Source: Candidatus Micrarchaeota archaeon
GTDB taxonomy: Archaea; B1Sed10-29; JAJRYS01
Length of the DNA: 10,314 nt
Reading direction: 5' to 3'
Assembly (NCBI GenBank): GCA_964496415.1
Contig: CAZBZN010000025.1
Coordinates: forward strand, 1 to 10,314
Within the stretch, counting starts at the first letter, position 1. Every line of letters begins with the position of its first letter. A model generated the notes under the pieces. The model did no database searches, was not told where the DNA came from, and saw nothing but the letters and a program-made list of their open reading frames with translations. The translations under genes were made by a program, and so were the position numbers. Positions 1 through 10,314 of the stretch are shown one piece after another.

Positions 1-79
1 CATCATCAACAATAACCCAGCGACGATTATTTTCATTAAGAACAAATGATAAATCCTTATCAAGTCTTTCCATTAACAT
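1..79 (-). CDS. 5' part of an ORF running off the left edge (MLMERLDKDLSFVLNENNRRWVIVDD...). Resembles the beta-strands of an RRE/PqqD-like domain; possible peptide maturase.
   Basis: Hand translation. ATG at 79-77, purine-rich AGGGGG at 94-89, open to position 1. Only 26 codons are visible, so the product call is weak. Confidence 0.45.
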   Translation of the reverse strand, partial: MLMERLDKDLSFVLNENNRRWVIVDD

Positions 80-122
80 TATAAACTTCCCCCTAAGAGA
101 AGTATCACCTATTCATATGTTT

Positions 123-239
123 TTATAAAAATAACCGTCTCCGTTGATCATATCCATTATGCTCTCCATAGTTGTCTATCCACGGCCCCCATCAGGATAA
201 CTTTGTTTTGCACCTAACACCTAGTGAAAAAACTTTCAT
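123..239 (-). pseudogene. Short peptide ORF with an internal TGA, paralog of 258-389: MKVFSLGVRCKTKLS*WGPWIDNYGEHNGYDQRRRLFL
   Basis: ATG at 239-237 behind GGGAAGGA, in-frame TGA at 194-192, TAA at 125-123. Shares MK[I/V]FS and [Y/W]IDxYG[D/E] with the upstream peptide, and the similarity continues in frame past the TGA. Confidence 0.55.
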
Positions 240-257
240 ACCAATCCTTCCCTGTAC

Positions 258-389
258 TTAATGTGATGAATCTATATATGCACTCACGCTGTAATTATCA
301 CCATACCTATCAATATAGCCATAGTCATCATACTCAATCATGTAACTGCAAACTTTACTATTTTTACTGTTGATTGAAAAAATTTTCAT
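258..389 (-). CDS. 43-aa peptide, putative RiPP precursor: MKIFSINSKNSKVCSYMIEYDDYGYIDRYGDNYSVSAYIDSSH
   Basis: Archaeal RBS GAGGTGA (400-394) 4 nt before the ATG, BRE/TATA upstream, TAA at 260-258. Four YxD motifs (YDD, YID, YGD, YID). Below the length cutoff of the ORF track. Confidence 0.65.
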   Translation of the reverse strand: MKIFSINSKNSKVCSYMIEYDDYGYIDRYGDNYSVSAYIDSSH

Positions 390-393
390 AACA

Positions 394-400
394 TCACCTC
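394..400 (-). promoter_or_regulatory. Shine-Dalgarno GAGGTGA for the 43-aa peptide
   Basis: Matches the archaeal SD consensus (GGAGGTGA) just ahead of the ATG at 389. Confidence 0.65.
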
Positions 401-424
401 TACAAGTATTTACCACCATTTAAT

Positions 425-440
425 TATTTAAAATTTTCTG
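425..440 (-). promoter_or_regulatory. BRE/TATA promoter (CAGAAAA-TTTTAAATA) for the peptide unit
   Basis: Purine-rich BRE abuts TTTAAATA about 25 nt upstream of the RBS. The AT-rich background lowers certainty. Confidence 0.55.
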
Positions 441-552: not shown

Positions 553-570
553 GTGGTGGGCCCACTCGGA

Positions 571-654
571 CTCCCGGAGGAGCTGCGTTTTCCCCAGCGT
601 TAGGCAACAAGCGTAGCATTGTTGCCTGGGGGTTAGAAGGGGCGCAGCCCCTCT
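571..654 (-). other. 84-nt non-canonical tRNA intron at 59/60 (T loop)
   Basis: BHB: central helix TTCG/CGGG (two G-U pairs), bulges AAA and AGT, 11-bp intron helix GAGGGGCTGCG/CGCAGCTCCTC. Removal restores a 7-nt T loop. Confidence 0.88.
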
Positions 655-676
655 TTCGAACCAAGGACCTCCGGTT

Positions 677-721
677 GTCTTAGGCAAAACCCAGCAACCG
701 GAACTGTGCTAGAGCGTGCCA
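677..721 (-). other. 45-nt canonical tRNA intron at 37/38
   Basis: Strict BHB: central helix CTTA/TAAG, bulges TAT and ACA, flanked by the anticodon stem and GGCA/TGCC. Confidence 0.93.
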
Positions 722-791
722 TATAAGACCGGCGCTCTAACCTGACTGAGCTATGGGCCCTTTTAGTGTTATACTTTTGCTCTTTGCTTAA

Positions 792-1416: not shown

Positions 1417-1971
1417 ATGAAAAATATTAGCTTTGAATTAAGACGTAATCTTTTTCACCTTATCTTTGGATGCTTGCTTTCATTGATAGTCTTTTTCGGA
1501 GACCAAAAGTTCTTAGTTCCGTTTTTTTCAGGATTAGTTGTTTCAGGAGTTGTTATTTCAAAAGCTATTGAAAAAAGACCTGTTCCTATTTTGTCATGGT
1601 TTGTTGAAAAATTCGGGAGAAAAGACGAGCCCCCTGGAAGAGGAGCAATAAACTTCCTCACTGGAGTATTAATTTCTTTGTTGTTTTTTGATCCAAAGAT
1701 TGTTTTTATAGGAATCTTAGTGCTTTCTTTTGATGATAGCTTTTCAACAATAATCGGAATCAGTTTTGGAAAGCATAAGATAAGAAATAACAAAACATTG
1801 GAAGGATTTTTAGGAGGGTTCGCAGCTGCTTTATTTGTTTCCTGCATGTTCATCCCGCTAACAAAAAGCATTTTAGTATCTCTTGTTGCTGCAGTAATAG
1901 AACTTTACGCTTTCCTTGATGATAATCTTTTAATTCCAATCAGTGCTTGTATAGTAATCTCTTTAACATAA
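1417..1971 (+). CDS. CTP-dependent polyprenol/dolichol kinase-like protein (SEC59/DGK1/VTE5 family)
   Basis: ELRRNLFH at the N-terminus, DSFSTIIG..FGKHKI..NKTLEG CTP-binding motif, C-terminal DDN, multiple TM segments. Confidence 0.85.
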   Translation: MKNISFELRRNLFHLIFGCLLSLIVFFGDQKFLVPFFSGLVVSGVVISKAIEKRPVPILSWFVEKFGRKDEPPGRGAINFLTGVLISLLFFDPKIVFIGILVLSFDDSFSTIIGISFGKHKIRNNKTLEGFLGGFAAALFVSCMFIPLTKSILVSLVAAVIELYAFLDDNLLIPISACIVISLT

Positions 1972-1972
1972 G

Positions 1973-1981
1973 TTTTTATAA
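1973..1981 (+). promoter_or_regulatory. Putative TATA box (TTTTTATAA) upstream of aglB
   Basis: Lies in the only sizeable intergenic gap (44 nt) of the plus-strand run, about 35 nt before the aglB ATG. Confidence 0.45.
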
Positions 1982-2015
1982 TCAAAGAGCTTGTAAAAAA
2001 CAAAAGTGAAGCCTT

Positions 2016-4406
2016 ATGAAACTACGTAAGCAAGAAGTGCTTGAAGCAGTAATAATCATTGGATTGTTTTTGATAGCTTTTGGAATAAGAGCCATTCCTT
2101 CTGATAAGTTTCAAAACATTTATGGGTTTGACTCTTACTGGTCTGCGAGAATGACTAAATACATTATTACTGGGGAAAAGCCAGGATGGCCTTTTGTTCC
2201 AATGAATGATACTGTCACTGACTATCCTTGGGGAAGGATTGATTTTCCTGCTCTTGAAGTGGGATATTGGAGTATTAATGCTTTAGGCTACTGGCTTGCT
2301 GGAGGCGGAAGTTCTTTTGACTATCACTTGTTCGGAGTGGTTGCTTCATGGCTTAATGCTTTCTTAGCTTCGCTTGCGATCCCATTTATTTACTTGTTCG
2401 GCAGGAAAGCTTTTGGAAGAATAACTGGTTTTGCTTCCGCGTTGTTTTTAGCGTTTTCTCCAGGGCACTTGTTTTACTCTGTTTACGGTCATGCTGAAAA
2501 CGATGGTTTTGGATTATCCTTGTTTTTCTTAGCATTGTTTTCTTTCGTGTTAATGGTTAAAGAAAAAAAGAAAAAATACGGGTTGTTTTCATTATTCATT
2601 TTCTCTTGGCTTTCTTTAGTATGGCAGTCTTATAATGTCGCAGTACTTCTTATTTCTGGAACAGTGATTGCTTACTTCATTTACGCAGCTCTCTTAAGCA
2701 AGTTTGGGTATTACAAAAACTCTGAGTCAAAAGCAGAGAAAAGAAAGTGGATGATTAATTCTTTAGCATGGGTCACTCCTTCTGTAATAATTAACTACCT
2801 ATTTACTGGAAAAGAAGGCTTTGGAACTATGGCTCTCCCAGTATTACTAGTTGGGATGGGTATTGCTTTGATAATTGAAGCTTTTTGCTTTAAGAAAAAA
2901 CCATTGAAGGATTATAAGAAAATAAGTTTGTTTTTAGCAGCGTTTGCAGTAATTGGAGTATGGTTTTACGGAGCAGCTTTAGTAAAAGCTCCTTTAGGAT
3001 TCTTCTTACAATTCGGAAATGAAGGCAAACTCCTTCCTTACGAGCAAAGAATGCTGCAAACAATTGCAGAACAAAACCCAGTGCCTGGGAATAATTTCTT
3101 TGAAAGAATAAGTACTCTTGAAGGCAACTTTGGGTTTAACATTTGGCTTGCTTTCATAGGAGGATTGATAGCTTTAACAAAACTTTTTGTAGTGCCTTTC
3201 CTTAGAAAGGACTTTGACCACGAGTGGGATATAATGGCTTTTGGATTAACTTTCTTCTCTCTTTGGTTCTTAACTCAAAAGTCAATAACTTTGTTCTTCC
3301 TTTCAGGAAGCATTGCTTTTGGAGCAGGGTACTTCTTTGGTTCTGTTAAAAAAATCATTGACTACTTCATCAGGAAACCTGAATGGAAGAATTATAATGC
3401 CTGCTTAAGCATAATAGTAATAGGTTTTATGACTGCTTCTTCTTTCTCTTACTTCACGGTGATAACTGAAAACGCTAAGTCAATGTCTTATGATGTTTAT
3501 CCTGAATGGTTCGAGCTCTTTGACTGGATCAACAAGAACGTTCCAAAAGGTTCTGTAATGACTGCGTGGTGGGATTACGGGCACTGGCTTAACTACTTTA
3601 ACGGTGACAAAATTTACACAAGCCTTGACAATATTCAGGACAGAAAAGACATAATCTACACCGTAGCAGCAGCATTCACTCACACTCCTAAATGCGGAAT
3701 TGACCAAACTACTGGGACTTATTATTGTAACTCAACAGAACAAGCTTTAGAAGAAGCTGAAAGAGAATCCCTTTCACTGCTTAAGCCTTTAGGAACAAAC
3801 TACATCATCGTTGATTATGAGATAATTGCTGGAACTACTGGTGGAAAGTTCGGTGCTTTAGAACACATTGCAAACAACCAAATAGGTTGCGTGATGAGTT
3901 TTGATTGTAAGAAAACAGAAAACTATTACCTCTGCCCAATAGGAAGGATCAACACTGGAGAACAAGCCGGCTTTGCATTAACTCCTGAACAATGGGAGTT
4001 GTTGAAAAACACTTCTTGGCCAGGGTTAGTAGTAACAATTCCTGTCTATGGTTTTAACTCAAACCAGAAAGTAGGGGAAGTGAAAACCAGGTGGTTTGCC
4101 AAAGACACTTCAAGCGGAAAGCACTTGTTATTCGGAAGCGGGACAGCTTGCGGTAATTACTTCTTCCAAGGAGGAGCAAACCCAAGCAGTCCTGTCATTT
4201 ATTCTTTCATTCACAGGCTTTACTTTAATGACCCCTCATTAAAACATGTTGAAAAAGTATTTGATAATGGTTGGATAGTGGTTTACAAAGTAAACTGGGA
4301 GGGGATTCCTGACCCTGAAGAATTCACTTACTGGACTAAAACTAATTCAGTGCTGTGTACTGGAGAAGCTTCTGAAAGATGCAAGTTAGGAAAGCTAATA
4401 AAGTGA
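2016..4406 (+). CDS. aglB: Oligosaccharyltransferase AglB (STT3 family)
   Basis: GFDSY (GxD), HAEND (DxD-type), TIAE (TIXE), WWDYG, relaxed DK motif E..KFGAL. Multi-TM N-terminal half and soluble C-terminal domain. Confidence 0.95.
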   Translation: MKLRKQEVLEAVIIIGLFLIAFGIRAIPSDKFQNIYGFDSYWSARMTKYIITGEKPGWPFVPMNDTVTDYPWGRIDFPALEVGYWSINALGYWLAGGGSSFDYHLFGVVASWLNAFLASLAIPFIYLFGRKAFGRITGFASALFLAFSPGHLFYSVYGHAENDGFGLSLFFLALFSFVLMVKEKKKKYGLFSLFIFSWLSLVWQSYNVAVLLISGTVIAYFIYAALLSKFGYYKNSESKAEKRKWMINSLAWVTPSVIINYLFTGKEGFGTMALPVLLVGMGIALIIEAFCFKKKPLKDYKKISLFLAAFAVIGVWFYGAALVKAPLGFFLQFGNEGKLLPYEQRMLQTIAEQNPVPGNNFFERISTLEGNFGFNIWLAFIGGLIALTKLFVVPFLRKDFDHEWDIMAFGLTFFSLWFLTQKSITLFFLSGSIAFGAGYFFGSVKKIIDYFIRKPEWKNYNACLSIIVIGFMTASSFSYFTVITENAKSMSYDVYPEWFELFDWINKNVPKGSVMTAWWDYGHWLNYFNGDKIYTSLDNIQDRKDIIYTVAAAFTHTPKCGIDQTTGTYYCNSTEQALEEAERESLSLLKPLGTNYIIVDYEIIAGTTGGKFGALEHIANNQIGCVMSFDCKKTENYYLCPIGRINTGEQAGFALTPEQWELLKNTSWPGLVVTIPVYGFNSNQKVGEVKTRWFAKDTSSGKHLLFGSGTACGNYFFQGGANPSSPVIYSFIHRLYFNDPSLKHVEKVFDNGWIVVYKVNWEGIPDPEEFTYWTKTNSVLCTGEASERCKLGKLIK

Positions 4407-4412
4407 GTTAAT

Positions 4413-5423
4413 ATGCCTGCTTTAAGCCTTGGATTACTTGTGGCACTCGTCACTCCATTGATTATTGGTAAGAAAATAATCAAGTACTTAAAAGCAGTTG
4501 GGATAGTTGGAATAGACCAGCATAAAAAAGACAAGCCAGTGATTGCTTCTTCAGGAGGAACAATAGTAGCTACTGGTGTCTTTTCAGGACTATTGACTTT
4601 CATAGCTTTATCTGTCTTTGTTACAAAAGCAAACATAAACTTGCTTAACTTAATGGCAGCCTTGCTTACAGTACAAACGATTACTGTTATTGGTTTTCTT
4701 GATGACATCTACTTAAACAAGAAACCTGAGAAAGACAAGAGCGGGGAGATAATGCTTAGAAGAGGATTATCCCAGCTTGAAAAAACAGTTCTTTTAATTC
4801 CTGCAGCAATTCCATTAATGGCAGTGAATGCTGGAGTCTCTTCAATGATACTGCCTTTCATAGGAAAAGTGCAATTCGGATTACTGTACCCATTGATTTT
4901 AGTACCAATAGGCGTAGTATGCGTTGCCAGCGCAGTGAACATGCTTGGAGGGTTTAATGGCCTGGAAGCAAGCATGGGAGCAATAGCTCTTACAGGAATA
5001 GGCGTGTTCGCGTTAATGAATAACTCGGTTGAAGCAGCAGCAATAGCATTAACAGGAGCAGCTGCATTAATTGCTTTCCTAAAGTTTAATTTCTACCCAG
5101 CAAAAGTACTCCCAGGCGACTCATTAACTTACCTCATAGGGGCATTGATAGCCTCCTCAGTGATAATCGGGAACATTGAAAGATTCGGAGTAATAGTCTT
5201 CACTCCTTGGATAATAGAAGCCTTCATTAAAGCTAAGCAAAGATTCAGGGCAACTTGCCTTGCAAGAGTTGATGAAAAAGGACTGCTTCATCCAAAGAAC
5301 GATAAAATAGAATCTCTTACTCACCTGATGATGAAACTGTTCCCTCTAACTGAAAGAAGAATAGTAGTTCTGTTTGCTGGAATTGAGGCTTTGTGCGTTG
5401 CAATAGCCTTCGTGTTATGCTAA
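4413..5423 (+). CDS. aglH: UDP-GlcNAc:dolichyl-phosphate GlcNAc-1-phosphotransferase (AglH/Alg7/GPT; MraY-like family)
   Basis: GIDQHK, GFLDD, NMLGGFNGLE and YPAKVLPGDS motifs; polytopic; adjacent to aglB. Confidence 0.88.
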   Translation: MPALSLGLLVALVTPLIIGKKIIKYLKAVGIVGIDQHKKDKPVIASSGGTIVATGVFSGLLTFIALSVFVTKANINLLNLMAALLTVQTITVIGFLDDIYLNKKPEKDKSGEIMLRRGLSQLEKTVLLIPAAIPLMAVNAGVSSMILPFIGKVQFGLLYPLILVPIGVVCVASAVNMLGGFNGLEASMGAIALTGIGVFALMNNSVEAAAIALTGAAALIAFLKFNFYPAKVLPGDSLTYLIGALIASSVIIGNIERFGVIVFTPWIIEAFIKAKQRFRATCLARVDEKGLLHPKNDKIESLTHLMMKLFPLTERRIVVLFAGIEALCVAIAFVLC

Positions 5424-5438
5424 AGGAAAGGGGTATCC

Positions 5439-6818
5439 ATGATAATAGCATTTAGTGGTTTAGGAGGTAGTGGAAAAACACTACAAGCAAAGAAATTAAA
5501 AGAAGAATTTGAAAAGGAAGGAAAAAAAGCAAAACTCATTCACTTATCAGAGAAGTTTAGGTTGATAAACTTAGTTAAGAAAAACACTAAAACAAAAAGC
5601 ACTTGGAATGTTGACTTGAATCCTGGAATCATTAAAAGTATAAAATCACTTCTCATGTCAGTTTATTACGTGCTTCATAGTTGGGGGTTTTATTTCTCAA
5701 CTAAACGAAAAACAGTTATCCTTGACAGGTACTATGATGATTTTTTAGTAGGCTTGTACTACAGAAAAAGAATTCCTAAGAGCCTGCTAAAAGTAATGCT
5801 CAGGTTAATTCCAAGACCAGATCTTCATTATTACGTAAAAGTAACTCACTTAACTGCTTATGAAAGAAAAAAAGAACACCCTAAAAAAGTAATAAAAGCA
5901 GAAGAAACAGCATATGACGAATATTTAAAACTCAACAATAAAGTGATAATAATTAATGGTGAAAAAAGAGAAAAAGAAGTATTTAATCAGATAGTTTTTT
6001 TCACGGACAAGCCTAAAAACCTCCTTCCAGAAGAATTTGCTGTTCAAAGAAGCTTGTTTGAAAAAAAATGCCCTCACTTCTCGGTTGACATCGCTGATAA
6101 AATGATTGAATATGCTAATGCAAACAAGTGTTTATATCAACTTTACTTATTGTTCAAGAAAAACAAAATAGGATGCAGCAAAGAAAGCAAACTGGATGAA
6201 TACTTTAGTGAAAAGCTTAAAAAGATAAAAAGAACTATTGAGTATGTGAAAAAAAACTATAAAGAGGCTATAATAATAAAGTCTCTTGAAAAAGATGCTG
6301 ACCTCGGAGAAGACATTGATTTACTAATACCAACAGGCGAAATCAAAAAAGAAGAAATCCAAATACCAGGAGGACTTCCTTTAGATATTCACTATTCTAT
6401 AAACTATGATGGGATCGTCTTCCTAAAGGGAATGGAAAAAAAGATCCCTTTTGATGAATTAAATTACCTTGTAACAGTTGCACATGCTGTTTTTGAGGCG
6501 GGAACTATCACCTTAAATGATGTTCTTAAATCAAAAAACAAAAAAGTAAGCAAAAGAATTAAAAAAATGGTGGATGAGGACGGGTGGATTAATGCCTTAG
6601 AATACTTTGAGGAAAAAACAAAAAAAAGATACCAAAGATATCCAATATTTATACCACTCCCTTTAGTAATAAGTTTTAAAACAAAAAAAATCATTAACAA
6701 CCTTACCAAGAAACAAGGCATTGGAAAAAACATCATATTTTCACAAATAAAATCACTTGCAAATATCTGGTATGCTCACGTCAGAAGGAGGATAACTTAC
6801 TATGAAAAAAGACTCTAA
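5439..6818 (+). CDS. Fusion of a thymidylate-kinase-like P-loop domain and a putative nucleotidyltransferase domain
   Basis: IAFSGLGGSGKT Walker A, ILDRY, PRPDL, A..RK lid. The C-terminal half has IIK...GEDIDLL and LDIH, typical of Pol-beta-type (NTP_transf_5-like) proteins. Confidence 0.7.
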   Translation: MIIAFSGLGGSGKTLQAKKLKEEFEKEGKKAKLIHLSEKFRLINLVKKNTKTKSTWNVDLNPGIIKSIKSLLMSVYYVLHSWGFYFSTKRKTVILDRYYDDFLVGLYYRKRIPKSLLKVMLRLIPRPDLHYYVKVTHLTAYERKKEHPKKVIKAEETAYDEYLKLNNKVIIINGEKREKEVFNQIVFFTDKPKNLLPEEFAVQRSLFEKKCPHFSVDIADKMIEYANANKCLYQLYLLFKKNKIGCSKESKLDEYFSEKLKKIKRTIEYVKKNYKEAIIIKSLEKDADLGEDIDLLIPTGEIKKEEIQIPGGLPLDIHYSINYDGIVFLKGMEKKIPFDELNYLVTVAHAVFEAGTITLNDVLKSKNKKVSKRIKKMVDEDGWINALEYFEEKTKKRYQRYPIFIPLPLVISFKTKKIINNLTKKQGIGKNIIFSQIKSLANIWYAHVRRRITYYEKRL

Positions 6819-7452
6819 CAAGAACATAGCCATGTATTCTGGAAGAGCGATTTCTGATGAAAGTCCTGTATGCAAAAAAGCAATTGAACTGCTAAAATTA
6901 AAAAGTGGTGACGTGTTACTAGACGCTGGATGTGGAGCAGGAAACCTGTTAGTACTTGCTGAAAGAAAAAAGGTAAAAGTGGATTTACATGGCATAGATA
7001 TATCAGAAACCAACATAAGGATTGCTAAAGGAAGACTAAAAAAAACTAAACTAAAAGTAGGTAACATTACTAAACTTCCATACAAAAGTAAAAAATTTAA
7101 CAAGATAGCAATAATAGGAGTATTATTATATCTTACAGAAGAAGAATTAGAAAAAGCTGTAGAAGAAACTAACAGGGTCAGTTCACAAAACGCAGTAATA
7201 GTAATAAGAAACAACCAACCCTTAAATTATATTGGCAATAGAATAAAATTAATCCTCAGCATGCTTAAAGGGAAAAAAATAACTTTTACTGACAGGTATT
7301 ACCATCCAAACAAAATAATCTCTTTATTTGAAAAAAAAGGATTTAAATTAACAAGATTTGAAATAACAGCCGAGAAAAAAATAATAGACTGCAACCCAAT
7401 ACTAAGAAAAATTTTTGGAAGTGCTTGGTATATTTTCAGAAAGGGTGACTAA
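6802..7452 (+). CDS. Class I SAM-dependent methyltransferase
   Basis: LLDAGCGAG, GIDIS, GNITKLPY...FNK. Overlaps the upstream gene by 17 nt. Confidence 0.9.
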   Translation: MKKDSNKNIAMYSGRAISDESPVCKKAIELLKLKSGDVLLDAGCGAGNLLVLAERKKVKVDLHGIDISETNIRIAKGRLKKTKLKVGNITKLPYKSKKFNKIAIIGVLLYLTEEELEKAVEETNRVSSQNAVIVIRNNQPLNYIGNRIKLILSMLKGKKITFTDRYYHPNKIISLFEKKGFKLTRFEITAEKKIIDCNPILRKIFGSAWYIFRKGD

Positions 7453-8298
7453 ATGAAAAAAATAATTTTTAACCTTAACTTTGATGACTTCCACCCGCAG
7501 AATTCAAAGTATGGGGATTTTGGTGGAAATAAAGAAGGACTCTTTTCTTACATCAACGAATTGATCACCGAATACCCAAAAATAAAAATAACAATGTTCA
7601 CTGTTCCCAACTGGATTGACAAACCTGATGATCTGTTAGTAATTAAAGGAATAAAATACTTGCTAGGATTAAACTTTAACAATTCTTGGAAAGGGGAACC
7701 TTTTAGAATAGATAAGCATCCTGAATGGGTTGAATGGGTTAACGAGTATGTTAAAAAAGGAAACTTAGAAATAGCAATTCATGGTTTATATCATCATAAG
7801 GATAATACTTTTAGGCATTCAGCTGAATTTGAAGGTCTTGAATACGATGAATGCCTAACACGGCTTAGAAAAGCAGAAGAAATAATGAAAGAAGCTGGAT
7901 TGAAGTATGTACGTGGTTTCAGACCTCCTGGATGGGGAATTAGCGGTGGCCTTTTAAAAGCTCTTAAAGATTTAAAGTTTGAATTCGTGTCCTTGTTTGG
8001 TACTCCTTATAAACTTACTAACATATTTGAAATTGAAGGACTAGTAAACATTCCTCAAAATTATAGCATCTTAGAACCTGCTGAAGAGGGGTTAAGAATA
8101 GCACAAAAGTATGGGAAAGTTTACGCTAAAGGACATTACTCTCCAAGAAACGGAAGAGAAATTATTCCTAATGGATTAACTAAAGAGAACTTTAATAACC
8201 TCAAAACTTTGTTAGAAAGACTATCAGAAAACTATAAGTTAAGGTTCTTGTCAATGAAAGAGATAGCTAAAGAGTATAAAAGAGGTCGTCTTAGATGA
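7453..8298 (+). CDS. NodB/CE4-like polysaccharide deacetylase (DUF2334-like)
   Basis: FDD, EIAIHGLYH (HxxxH), EF and GFRPPGW motifs. Confidence 0.82.
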   Translation: MKKIIFNLNFDDFHPQNSKYGDFGGNKEGLFSYINELITEYPKIKITMFTVPNWIDKPDDLLVIKGIKYLLGLNFNNSWKGEPFRIDKHPEWVEWVNEYVKKGNLEIAIHGLYHHKDNTFRHSAEFEGLEYDECLTRLRKAEEIMKEAGLKYVRGFRPPGWGISGGLLKALKDLKFEFVSLFGTPYKLTNIFEIEGLVNIPQNYSILEPAEEGLRIAQKYGKVYAKGHYSPRNGREIIPNGLTKENFNNLKTLLERLSENYKLRFLSMKEIAKEYKRGRLR

Positions 8299-8957
8299 AA
8301 AAAAGATTCAGGGAAATGGGAAAAAATAAGTATAACCCCATAGAAGAAAAAACTGTAAAGTTTTTATCTTTAAGAATTGCAAGGCTCTTGAAAAATGTTA
8401 AAATAATCACTCCTAATAGAATCTCAATCTTCCGTCTCTTATTAGCGCTTTTAATAGCTTTTCTAATTACAAAAAAAGAACTAATAATATCAGCAGTGCT
8501 TGTTTATTTTTACTTCATGCTTGACAAACTTGATGGTGACCTGGCTAGAATCAGGAAAACAGAAAGTAATTCCGGCGCATTCATTGACTCAATTATTGAC
8601 AACTATTCTTTCATCATGTTAACAATAGCAGCAGCACTTGAGGCAGGAGTTACTAATCCCATCATTATAAGCATGGCTGTTACCTGTCCGATACTTTTTT
8701 TCTATCATTATTTTGGCCGTACTATTCACTTGGATACTGATTCAAAAAGAGTAAAAAGAGTGATGGAAAATTCAAGACTAAGGACTTTATTTGCTTTTAG
8801 CTATGGAAAATTGTACTTGTTGCTAATTGCCTGCTTATTGCTAAACATTCTTTATTATTTCTTATTAGTACTTGCATTACTTCAAGCGTATGTAATACTT
8901 TGGGTAATAGTATACGTCTATAGAGGGGTGAAAAATGAAAAAAAAGCCTTATCTTGA
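8295..8957 (+). CDS. CDP-alcohol phosphatidyltransferase family protein
   Basis: ITPNxIS and the full signature DxxDGxxAR-x7-GxxxDxxxD (DKLDGDLARIRKTESNSGAFIDSIID). ATGA overlap with the upstream gene. Confidence 0.92.
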   Translation: MKKRFREMGKNKYNPIEEKTVKFLSLRIARLLKNVKIITPNRISIFRLLLALLIAFLITKKELIISAVLVYFYFMLDKLDGDLARIRKTESNSGAFIDSIIDNYSFIMLTIAAALEAGVTNPIIISMAVTCPILFFYHYFGRTIHLDTDSKRVKRVMENSRLRTLFAFSYGKLYLLLIACLLLNILYYFLLVLALLQAYVILWVIVYVYRGVKNEKKALS

Positions 8958-9525
8958 AATTCAGCTTGAAAGCTTAAAAAACCCAAAAATAAAGAAATGG
9001 AGAGAAAAAGTCCAAGCAAAGTTTCTTCCGCAGTTCTATGAGTTTACAGGGTTAGATTTATCAAAAATGAAAGTGCTTGTATGCGCTTGTGGTTCTGGAT
9101 TTGAAGTTGAGCCCCTTCAAACTGAATGTAAAGAACTCTTGGGCATTGATATTGACAAAGAAAGTGTCAAATATTGCTCTAAGAACTTCAAAGGAAAATT
9201 TATGGTGGGTGATGCTGAAAACCTGAAATTTAAAGATAATGAATTTGATTTAGTGGTCTCTTGTTACACCCTTGAACATGTCAACAACTGGAAAAAAGCA
9301 CTGCATGAAATAATAAGAGTTGGAAAAAAAGCTTACATTAAAGTCCCTAACGGATTCTATCCTGACAACCATAAACCCGAAGAAAACGCTAAAAAAATAA
9401 ACCCCTTTGCTTTTGTAAAAGAATGTAAAAAGTACGGAAAAATAAAAGTTTCATGGGGTCCTTTTTACTGGCTTAAACCAACAGTAACTGTTTACTTAGA
9501 AAAATATAGCCTGGGTGAAGTTTGA
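8935..9525 (+). CDS. Class I SAM-dependent methyltransferase (type 11-like)
   Basis: VLVCACGSG, GIDID, GDAENLKFKDNEFDLV, LEHV, VPN. Confidence 0.88.
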   Translation: MKKKPYLEIQLESLKNPKIKKWREKVQAKFLPQFYEFTGLDLSKMKVLVCACGSGFEVEPLQTECKELLGIDIDKESVKYCSKNFKGKFMVGDAENLKFKDNEFDLVVSCYTLEHVNNWKKALHEIIRVGKKAYIKVPNGFYPDNHKPEENAKKINPFAFVKECKKYGKIKVSWGPFYWLKPTVTVYLEKYSLGEV

Positions 9526-9528
9526 TTG

Positions 9529-10314
9529 ATGTTTAAAAAAAAGAAGTTAGTTTCAATAATTATCCCAACATGGAATAATGAAGATGTAATAAAAGACTGT
9601 TTAGAGAGTTTAAGAAATCAGACTTATAAAAACATAGAAATTATAGTTATTGATAATTTTTCAAAAGATAAGACTTTTGAAATTGTAAAAAAGTATGGTG
9701 CAAAAGTTAAAAGGTTAAGGAGTAACATTTCTCAAGCTAGAAATGAAGGTGCTAAAATAGCTAAAGGGGAAATTTTAGTTTTTACCGACTCTGATTGTGA
9801 GTTTCCAAAGGATTATATTGAAAAGATAGTTAAAAAGATGAAAAAGTTTGATCTTATTGGCGGGAGAGATATTACAATTCCTTTTAATAAAAAAAGCTTA
9901 ACTCTTCTAGAAAGAACTTCTACTTTGGTTGAGGACTTAAGAAAACCAAAAACACCTATGCAAGTTGTCCATAGGATAAAAGCATGTAATTTAGCTATTA
10001 AGAAAAAAGTTTTTGAAAGTGTGAAAGGTTTTGATAACAGACAGGTTGCTTTAGAAGAGCCTGATATTTCTTTCAGAGTTCTCAAAAAAGGTTATAAAAT
10101 TTCTTTTGAACCAGACATTTTTGTTTATCATAAGAGAAGAACAACCTTAAAAGGGCTATTCAAACAGATGAAAAGAAATGGTGAAGGTAAGGCAACACTT
10201 TTACTGAAGCATGGGAGAGCTTTAATGAGAAAAATTGATTATTTTGTGGTAAGTTTTCCAATAGTGACAATTATTTTATTCTTGCTGTCTTTTTATAACA
10301 TATCATTTTTATTG
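9529..10314 (+). CDS. Family 2 glycosyltransferase, 3'-truncated by the window
   Basis: Hand translation open from ATG 9529 to the end: VSIIIPTWN, IIVIDNFSKD, ARNEG, FTDSD (DxD), GFD, EEPD, QMKRN, then the start of a TM segment. Missing from the ORF track because there is no stop. Confidence 0.92.
   Translation, partial: MFKKKKLVSIIIPTWNNEDVIKDCLESLRNQTYKNIEIIVIDNFSKDKTFEIVKKYGAKVKRLRSNISQARNEGAKIAKGEILVFTDSDCEFPKDYIEKIVKKMKKFDLIGGRDITIPFNKKSLTLLERTSTLVEDLRKPKTPMQVVHRIKACNLAIKKKVFESVKGFDNRQVALEEPDISFRVLKKGYKISFEPDIFVYHKRRTTLKGLFKQMKRNGEGKATLLLKHGRALMRKIDYFVVSFPIVTIILFLLSFYNISFLL

Follow-up and report, generated by a model that had tools for sequence, protein, structure and literature searches.

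A short ORF rich in Tyr-x-Asp motifs lies near the end of a small archaeal contig, and the question is whether it belongs to a peptide-modifying system and, if so, of what kind. The window, by which we mean the whole stretch of DNA analysed (10,314 nucleotides), is contig C25 at its full length and belongs to a Candidatus Micrarchaeota genome (G000) of 687 kb that is 91% complete. The original prediction placed tandem precursor peptides of a RiPP system at positions 1 to 440, with their maturase just left of the window. Judged on its sequence, the system is best read as a cassette of the RiPP type in a small phylum of DPANN-type archaea. Gene order, domains, catalytic motifs and the peptide pattern are conserved. 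The features, in the direction of transcription, are:

425..440, minus strand: promoter element resembling an archaeal BRE/TATA, CAGAAAA followed by TTTAAATA (by eye)
394..400, minus strand: Shine-Dalgarno sequence GAGGTGA of peptide 1
258..389, minus strand: precursor peptide 1, 43 aa, with an MKIF leader and a core with four YxD motifs
93..252, strand not given: polymorphic slot, replaced in a co-occurring run X1 contig, with other alleles in run X2
123..239, minus strand: interrupted second precursor copy, with an MKVFS start, TGA at 194-192 and WIDNYGE at 182-162
89..94, minus strand: Shine-Dalgarno-like AGGGGG of the maturase
1..79, minus strand: N-terminal part of the maturase, first 26 codons; the rest lies on contig C15 (L001:14678-16294, minus strand)
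L001:13917-14690 (frame): helical protein, 254 aa
L001:13234-13908: HAD-like protein, 225 aa

The precursor slot and its maturase

The 43-aa peptide with four YxD motifs proved to be a real ORF, running from 389 to 258 on the minus strand and also predicted by a gene caller (P0133). Its motifs are YDD, YID, YGD and YID. Of the 1521 genomic ORFs that start with ATG and span 30-60 aa, no other has three or more YxD motifs (one has two). The ribosome-binding site proposed for it was located as GAGGTGA at 400-394, and sites of the GGTG/GGAGG type lie 5' of five of seven homologous peptides, while G011 has a weak site and G013c none. The proposed promoter corresponds to the BRE/TATA-like element spanning 440-425, recognised by eye from its likeness to the consensus; the promoter scanning program covers sigma-70 sites only.

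Just upstream of this promoter lie a terminator-like hairpin and the 3' end of a tRNA-Ile gene (553-760, minus strand) with a UAU anticodon and encoded CCA. The gene apparently has two introns, one after position 37 and another, which is long, within the T loop; it is missed by ARAGORN at default settings, weakly matched by Rfam and partly found when introns are allowed. Further along the window, 1417-10314 (plus strand) holds an N-glycosylation cluster, unrelated to the cassette, with a kinase-like membrane protein, AglB/STT3, a glycosyltransferase of family 4 and others.

The second predicted peptide fared differently. Its MKVFS start and WIDNYGE motif do share one frame, but the frame is not open, with a TGA at codon 16 (194-192), and the proposal of two intact tandem precursors is not supported. 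This genome uses TGA as a stop codon, as the window ORF 858-1412 ends in TGA. In the +1 frame, bases 199-185 encode YPDGG, in agreement with the pattern of the precursor family, and the likeliest reading is that this copy has decayed through two one-base slips that cancel each other out; the second copy is thus probably a decayed precursor. A selenocysteine or otherwise recoded TGA was rejected, since TGA terminates other genes, homologues have neither a stop nor Cys at this position, and the family pattern is better matched in the +1 frame. An assembly error is not supported, as a run X1 contig (depth 11.3) is identical to the window over 26-282, although X1 may itself be the source run.

The precursor slot differs between strains, and the motif codons are kept. 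A 474-base contig of run X1 (depth 8.9) diverges from the window at 92 and rejoins it at 253, a 181-base contig of the same run (depth 5.3) substitutes for 328-418, and run X2 departs from the window sequence beyond 92 and beyond the MKVFS start. Both substitutions listed for the second allele of peptide 1, two of five contig differences, are synonymous (D31, Y33). This variability probably explains why the assembly breaks here.

The co-oriented downstream ORF starts at 79 on the minus strand and, as described, runs off base 1. Window bases 1-55 match exactly the last 55 bases of contig C15 at an assembly-graph junction. C15 is the sole overlap partner for that end of C25 (the assembly has 10 such pairs), and a contig of run X2, from a separate study, spans 1-92 and extends 798 bases past base 1. 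Together, the overlap and the run X2 contig indicate that the ORF continues as a 539-aa frame on C15. Extension to the left thus recovered the maturase, completed beyond the window's edge: a 547-aa protein with radical SAM (E = 8e-21) and SPASM (E = 3e-4) domains and a C-terminal PF00391 PEP-utilizer mobile domain (E = 1e-18). A motif check confirmed CxxxCxxC and the SPASM cysteines of a long radical SAM/SPASM protein, together with GGEP. Genes for the helical protein and then the HAD-like protein follow 3' of it.

Three further expectations found no clear support. An N-terminal RRE was expected; Pfam PqqD matched none of nine maturase homologues; the region, only ~60 residues long here, has a conserved N-x-x-x-GRW hairpin and a low-confidence beta-beta-alpha-alpha model (pLDDT 33-54). 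No peptidase or transporter was found among the cassette's ORFs, nor a C39 peptidase in the 91% complete genome. Kinship with known triceptide synthases was likewise unsupported: among the best 25 of 103 NCBIfam families, the maturase passed no cut-off. HxsB (182 bits, cut-off 370), PapB (181/340) and CbpB (177/375) ranked above the cyclophane synthases, with DynA at 161/450, GrrM at 134/310, YhhB at 121/445 and AmcB at 110/425. The enzyme fell below the cut-off of all models of described 3-CyFE families (GrrM/OscB, FxsB, YhhB, AmcB, XyeB), and no YxdB model appeared among these best 25 of 103. The nearest solved relative is CteB (5WGG; E = 6e-38, Foldseek rank 1), followed by anSME, with which the eight SPASM-region cysteines of the maturase align. 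ChlB matched over the core only (E = 6e-14).

Related cassettes and the peptide pattern

Of 31 genomes from the phylum, 6 have cassettes combining a peptide, a radical SAM (rSAM) enzyme and a His-swivel module, eight cassettes in all: one each in G000, G004, G011, G021 and G027 and three in G013, one of these with a split enzyme. In all eight, the ORF immediately upstream of the enzyme encodes a homologous peptide. G011, from the same taxonomic order, has a five-gene cassette in identical gene order, with the swivel as a separate ORF and identities to G000 of 46% (enzyme), 33% (helical protein) and 39% (HAD-like protein). Its 46-aa peptide, with an MKAF leader and a WIDTYGD core, was located by way of the enzyme rather than by its motif.

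A common pattern, Y-x-[DE]-x-G-x-[WY]-x-D-x-Y-[GS]-[DE], runs through the five closest precursors with minor differences in length, and the G013:C26 peptide starts with MKF and carries a period-4 YxD repeat with six motifs. Every one of the eight precursors has three to six aromatic-x-[DE] motifs. The claim of a conserved precursor stands, and the homologues in the cassettes keep the aromatic-x-D/E spacing. The original prediction had named a short or unrelated housekeeping ORF downstream and loss of this spacing as the outcomes that would speak against it; what was found is a long radical SAM/SPASM ORF and conserved spacing.

In a shuffle test that is partly circular, as six of the seven homologous peptides were picked with motif filters, D/E occurred at +2 from an aromatic residue 30 times versus 13.6 in composition-kept shuffles (0 of 2000 shuffles). 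Offset -2 was enriched as well (23 versus 13.5), and offsets +1, +3, +4, -1, -3 and -4 showed no enrichment in these peptides. Given this circularity, position directly upstream of the enzyme serves as the independent criterion. Six of the eight precursors contain no Cys, and the other two have one in the leader region. Y-G is present in five of the eight intact precursors and in the broken copy. All six matches of the peptide profile adjoin such enzymes, and all are training rows; against the protein collection, the profile gave 27 candidates and returned only the six training peptides.

A quick tree gave two supported groups, G000/G011/P0001/P0004 and G004/G013a/G021/G027, and left two enzymes unplaced, so that a single origin of the eight enzymes is not supported. 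SCIFF enzymes branch apart from the maturase in this tree. Pattern scans, which miss divergent cassette members, hit at least 78 metagenome loci and 69 genome loci, and among the matches listed G011 is the only close orthologue. The survey beyond the home phylum covered three archaeal phyla and turned up no cassette of this kind. One (17 genomes) gave 10 matches, whose inspected flanks were His-Xaa-Ser-like or had no such peptide; another (61 genomes) gave eight matches, with no swivel motif near the seven loci checked; and the third (66 genomes) gave none. In viral contigs, the core DNA pattern occurred at 46 loci, none near an rSAM.

Several other loci were noticed along the way. Four or five tandem ORFs of 23-28 aa with MKAKI leaders and Cys lie directly upstream of an rSAM gene in G001:C49 (L243:2799-3231), and a 42-aa aromatic-rich ORF has the same position relative to a related rSAM in a Nitrospira record (L107:5302-5433). 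Cys/Asp-rich peptides precede rSAMs in G009 and G027, and His-Xaa-Ser-like systems occur in another small archaeal phylum (loci in the set L229, L238, L257-L265). G000 itself has a tandem of three radical SAM genes (C8:28770-32076).

The phosphocarrier module

The swivel module was missed in the first reading because it lies outside the window. It accompanies all eight aromatic-x-acid cassettes and is fused to the enzyme in G000 and G004:C6, with fusions in two domain orders. PF00391 had 70 matches in the phylum, 44 of which were set aside, mostly by frame length, as PEP synthase, PPDK or enzyme I. The remaining 26 swivels divide into 13 adjacent or fused to an rSAM, 12 away from any rSAM and one at a contig edge. 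The swivel His is kept in all 13 rSAM-linked copies (12 by pattern, one by eye). Their rSAM partners have CbpB/PapB/HxsB, ACGX-system or ScmE-like best NCBIfam matches, and the associated peptides differ, including Cys-rich and WxxD-rich ones.

Cassettes of an rSAM and a swivel with other peptides, which have WxxD repeats, are Cys/Pro/Asp-rich or contain Cys, were seen at L207:5774-8537, L221:467-2630, L215:4129-6633 and L209:3204-5197; one of them is a swivel-helical-rSAM triple fusion. G000 also has three swivels with a 316-344-aa partner and no rSAM (C5:28135-29338, C7:30337-32382, C36:2418-3681), and the C7 module includes a paralogue of the HAD-like protein. A swivel subgroup follows a polyprenyl synthase gene (L210:2779-7081, L206:4972-7466, G000 C5:28135-30592), joined at the G002 locus by isopentenyl phosphate kinase- and IDI-2-like genes (named by eye); this subgroup is possibly a kinase of isoprenoid metabolism.

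No ATP-grasp domain was found in any of the cassettes. The ATP-grasp domains of G000, G004, G011 and G013 are those of PEP synthase only, to which G021 and G027 add PPDK. At G016:C14 (L208:325-3343), a helical homologue (E = 6e-14 with a two-sequence profile) has a swivel ORF on one side and a stand-alone ATP-grasp on the other, with no rSAM present, and this locus is predicted to encode the parts of a three-part split dikinase.

The helical protein itself had no significant match by Foldseek or PDB sequence search. Language-model features placed it at 0.96-0.98 with Rph_4th clusters at low recognition. Its alignment to residues 430-682 of RPH (5HV1; Z 6.1, rmsd 4.6, 142 aligned) ranked 38th and was the longest of 50 rows in a fold search dominated by generic channel helices. 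The likeness to RPH is thus a weak lead. Profile-profile comparisons between the helical partners of different cassettes gave none that was significant (best 5.6%). HAD proteins usually carry a DxD motif, in place of which the HAD-like protein has DVVGV. A match to this protein in G007 was rejected as a further cassette, with no rSAM cassette there.

Proposed chemistry, known systems and significance

The peptide is very probably the substrate of the adjacent enzyme. In the proposed mechanism, a precursor with a leader of ~15 residues and an acidic aromatic core would be acted on by the radical SAM/SPASM enzyme, which would abstract a side-chain hydrogen from Asp/Glu. The resulting carbon would couple to the ring of the Trp/Tyr that stands two positions earlier, so that each [WY]-x-[DE] would become a three-residue cyclophane, often in the period-4 pair W-x-D-x-Y-x-D. 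From the Cys-free cores and the dominant +2 spacing, we infer aromatic-to-Asp/Glu three-residue cross-links as the product, a proposal whose chances we judge to be evenly balanced. The lack of Cys in six of eight precursors, and its leader position in the other two, argues against thioether chemistry.

The same precursor and enzyme could instead perform different radical chemistry, an appreciable minority prospect that includes fused W-x-D-x-Y rings as in darobactin/dynobactin, an Asp-to-Tyr(i+2) link, epimerisation, or tyramine excision at x-Y-G, the motif at which spliceases excise tyramine. The enrichment at -2 fits D-to-Y(i+2) links or fused rings equally well, the DynA score exceeds those of GrrM and YhhB, and the enzyme is distant from characterised triceptide synthases; the frequent Y-G would suit excision, but three precursors lack it. 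The +2 signal is the stronger one and the sole spacing kept in the YxD-repeat peptide of G013:C26, and the nif11-class-3 and GDL-motif models fall outside the best 25 of 103 families. It is highly improbable that the short ORFs are not substrates at all, the peptide pattern being chance and the enzyme an anSME-like protein maturase or a small-molecule enzyme. The rank of anSME among solved relatives, its aligned cysteines and the missing C39 peptidase would agree with such an enzyme, but the homologous peptide directly upstream in every cassette, the uniqueness of peptide 1 among 1521 short ORFs, the strong ribosome sites and the synonymous variation in peptide 1 would not.

For the swivel module, we consider a role in which the His-swivel and its helical partner would together make up a split phosphotransferase of the dikinase type. 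PEP synthase would probably charge it in trans, and its targets would be Tyr, Thr or Ser of the peptide. Such peptide phosphorylation is rather unlikely. Only slightly less than even is the chance that the RiPP pair is real and that the swivel, helical and HAD-like proteins leave the peptide unmodified, being a mobile phosphorelay, a small-molecule kinase or a PEP/ATP-status regulator of the maturase. That alternative would suit the 12 of 26 swivel ORFs that stand without an rSAM (three in G000, one of them with a HAD-like paralogue), the subgroup beside polyprenyl synthase genes, the cassettes' lack of ATP-grasp and the DVVGV of the HAD-like protein. It sits less well with the 13 of 26 swivels that adjoin or are fused to rSAMs of several lineages, with the two domain orders of the fusions, and with a swivel in every aromatic-x-acid cassette.

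The preferred reading, a RiPP cassette with aromatic-to-Asp/Glu cross-links, resembles the triceptide systems (YxdB, ChlB, XyeB, GrrM/OscB, FxsB, YhhB, HaaB) in having a repeated aromatic-X-X precursor beside a radical SAM/SPASM enzyme. The available text of the respective sources defines triceptides as peptides whose aromatic-X2-X3 motifs carry an aromatic-to-C-beta link (PMC11499958), has YxdB joining Tyr C3 to Asp C-beta on Tyr-x-Asp (PMC11002830), and gives the rings of xenorceptide A2 as WVN, FAR and WSK, the first two of which have the same four-residue register as W-x-D-x-Y-x-D (10.1101/2024.12.16.628070). Unlike these systems, ours has an archaeal DPANN-type host, no XYE-kind protease or transporter, and an attached His-swivel module. 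As the enzyme is below all NCBIfam cut-offs and nearer to HxsB/PapB/CteB, it would at best work like a triceptide system; YxdB is set beside it by description only. HxsB (TIGR03978), CbpB (TIGR04163), PapB (NF047865) and CteB/SCIFF are its best profile or structure matches and share a PCGAG SPASM start, but it reaches about half of each HxsB, CbpB and PapB cut-off. It differs from His-Xaa-Ser systems in having no His-x-Ser repeats and no second rSAM partner (compare the HxS loci L263/L265), and from ranthipeptides and sactipeptides (PapB, CteB) in a core without Cys donors.

The PF00391 swivel with its conserved His recalls RPH, which the accessible part of PMC4844700 describes as ATP-grasp, acceptor and swivel domains, and HpeHI, a split dikinase that phosphorylates a phenolic OH according to the corresponding part of PMC12167813. 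In contrast to both, the cassette is without ATP-grasp, its swivel and helical parts are separate or rSAM-fused, the helical domain is much smaller than the RIF-binding domain, and the proposed acceptor is a peptide.

Archaeal cyclophane candidates are not unheard of, as the available portion of PMC11851443 lists six archaeal sequences of WprB-related enzymes with WPR or WxR/K precursors. In the available portion of the survey PMC12144867, the archaeal rSAM RiPP clusters are classed as ranthi- and sactipeptides; such rSAM-dependent clusters are predictions, and validation before that survey extended to just two lanthipeptides, both haloarchaeal. Literature searches combining PEP-utilizer, PF00391 or swiveling domain with RiPP (and radical SAM) returned no description of the module, although survey network tables could list the enzymes, and searches on DPANN, RiPP and radical SAM precursors returned graspetides only. 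The cassette is not described in the accessible parts of PMC9062424, PMC8939145, PMC8204110 and PMC12912966. It is apparently an undescribed variant of radical SAM RiPP systems with an unusual phosphocarrier module. The full combination, in which the first archaeal cyclophane RiPPs would come with a trans-charged peptide kinase reused with unrelated rSAMs and with a strain-swapped precursor slot, is improbable as a whole.

The locus offers a compact and testable rSAM substrate-enzyme pair in a 0.7-Mb archaeon, and its enzyme comes from a lineage other than those of the known cyclophane synthases. The exchange of precursors between strains hints at involvement in conflict or recognition. If the cross-link is true, the HxsB/CteB neighbourhood would have evolved or acquired aromatic-x-Asp macrocyclisation. 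If peptide phosphorylation is true, the module would be a tailoring enzyme new to RiPPs and an example of trans-charging in a dikinase.
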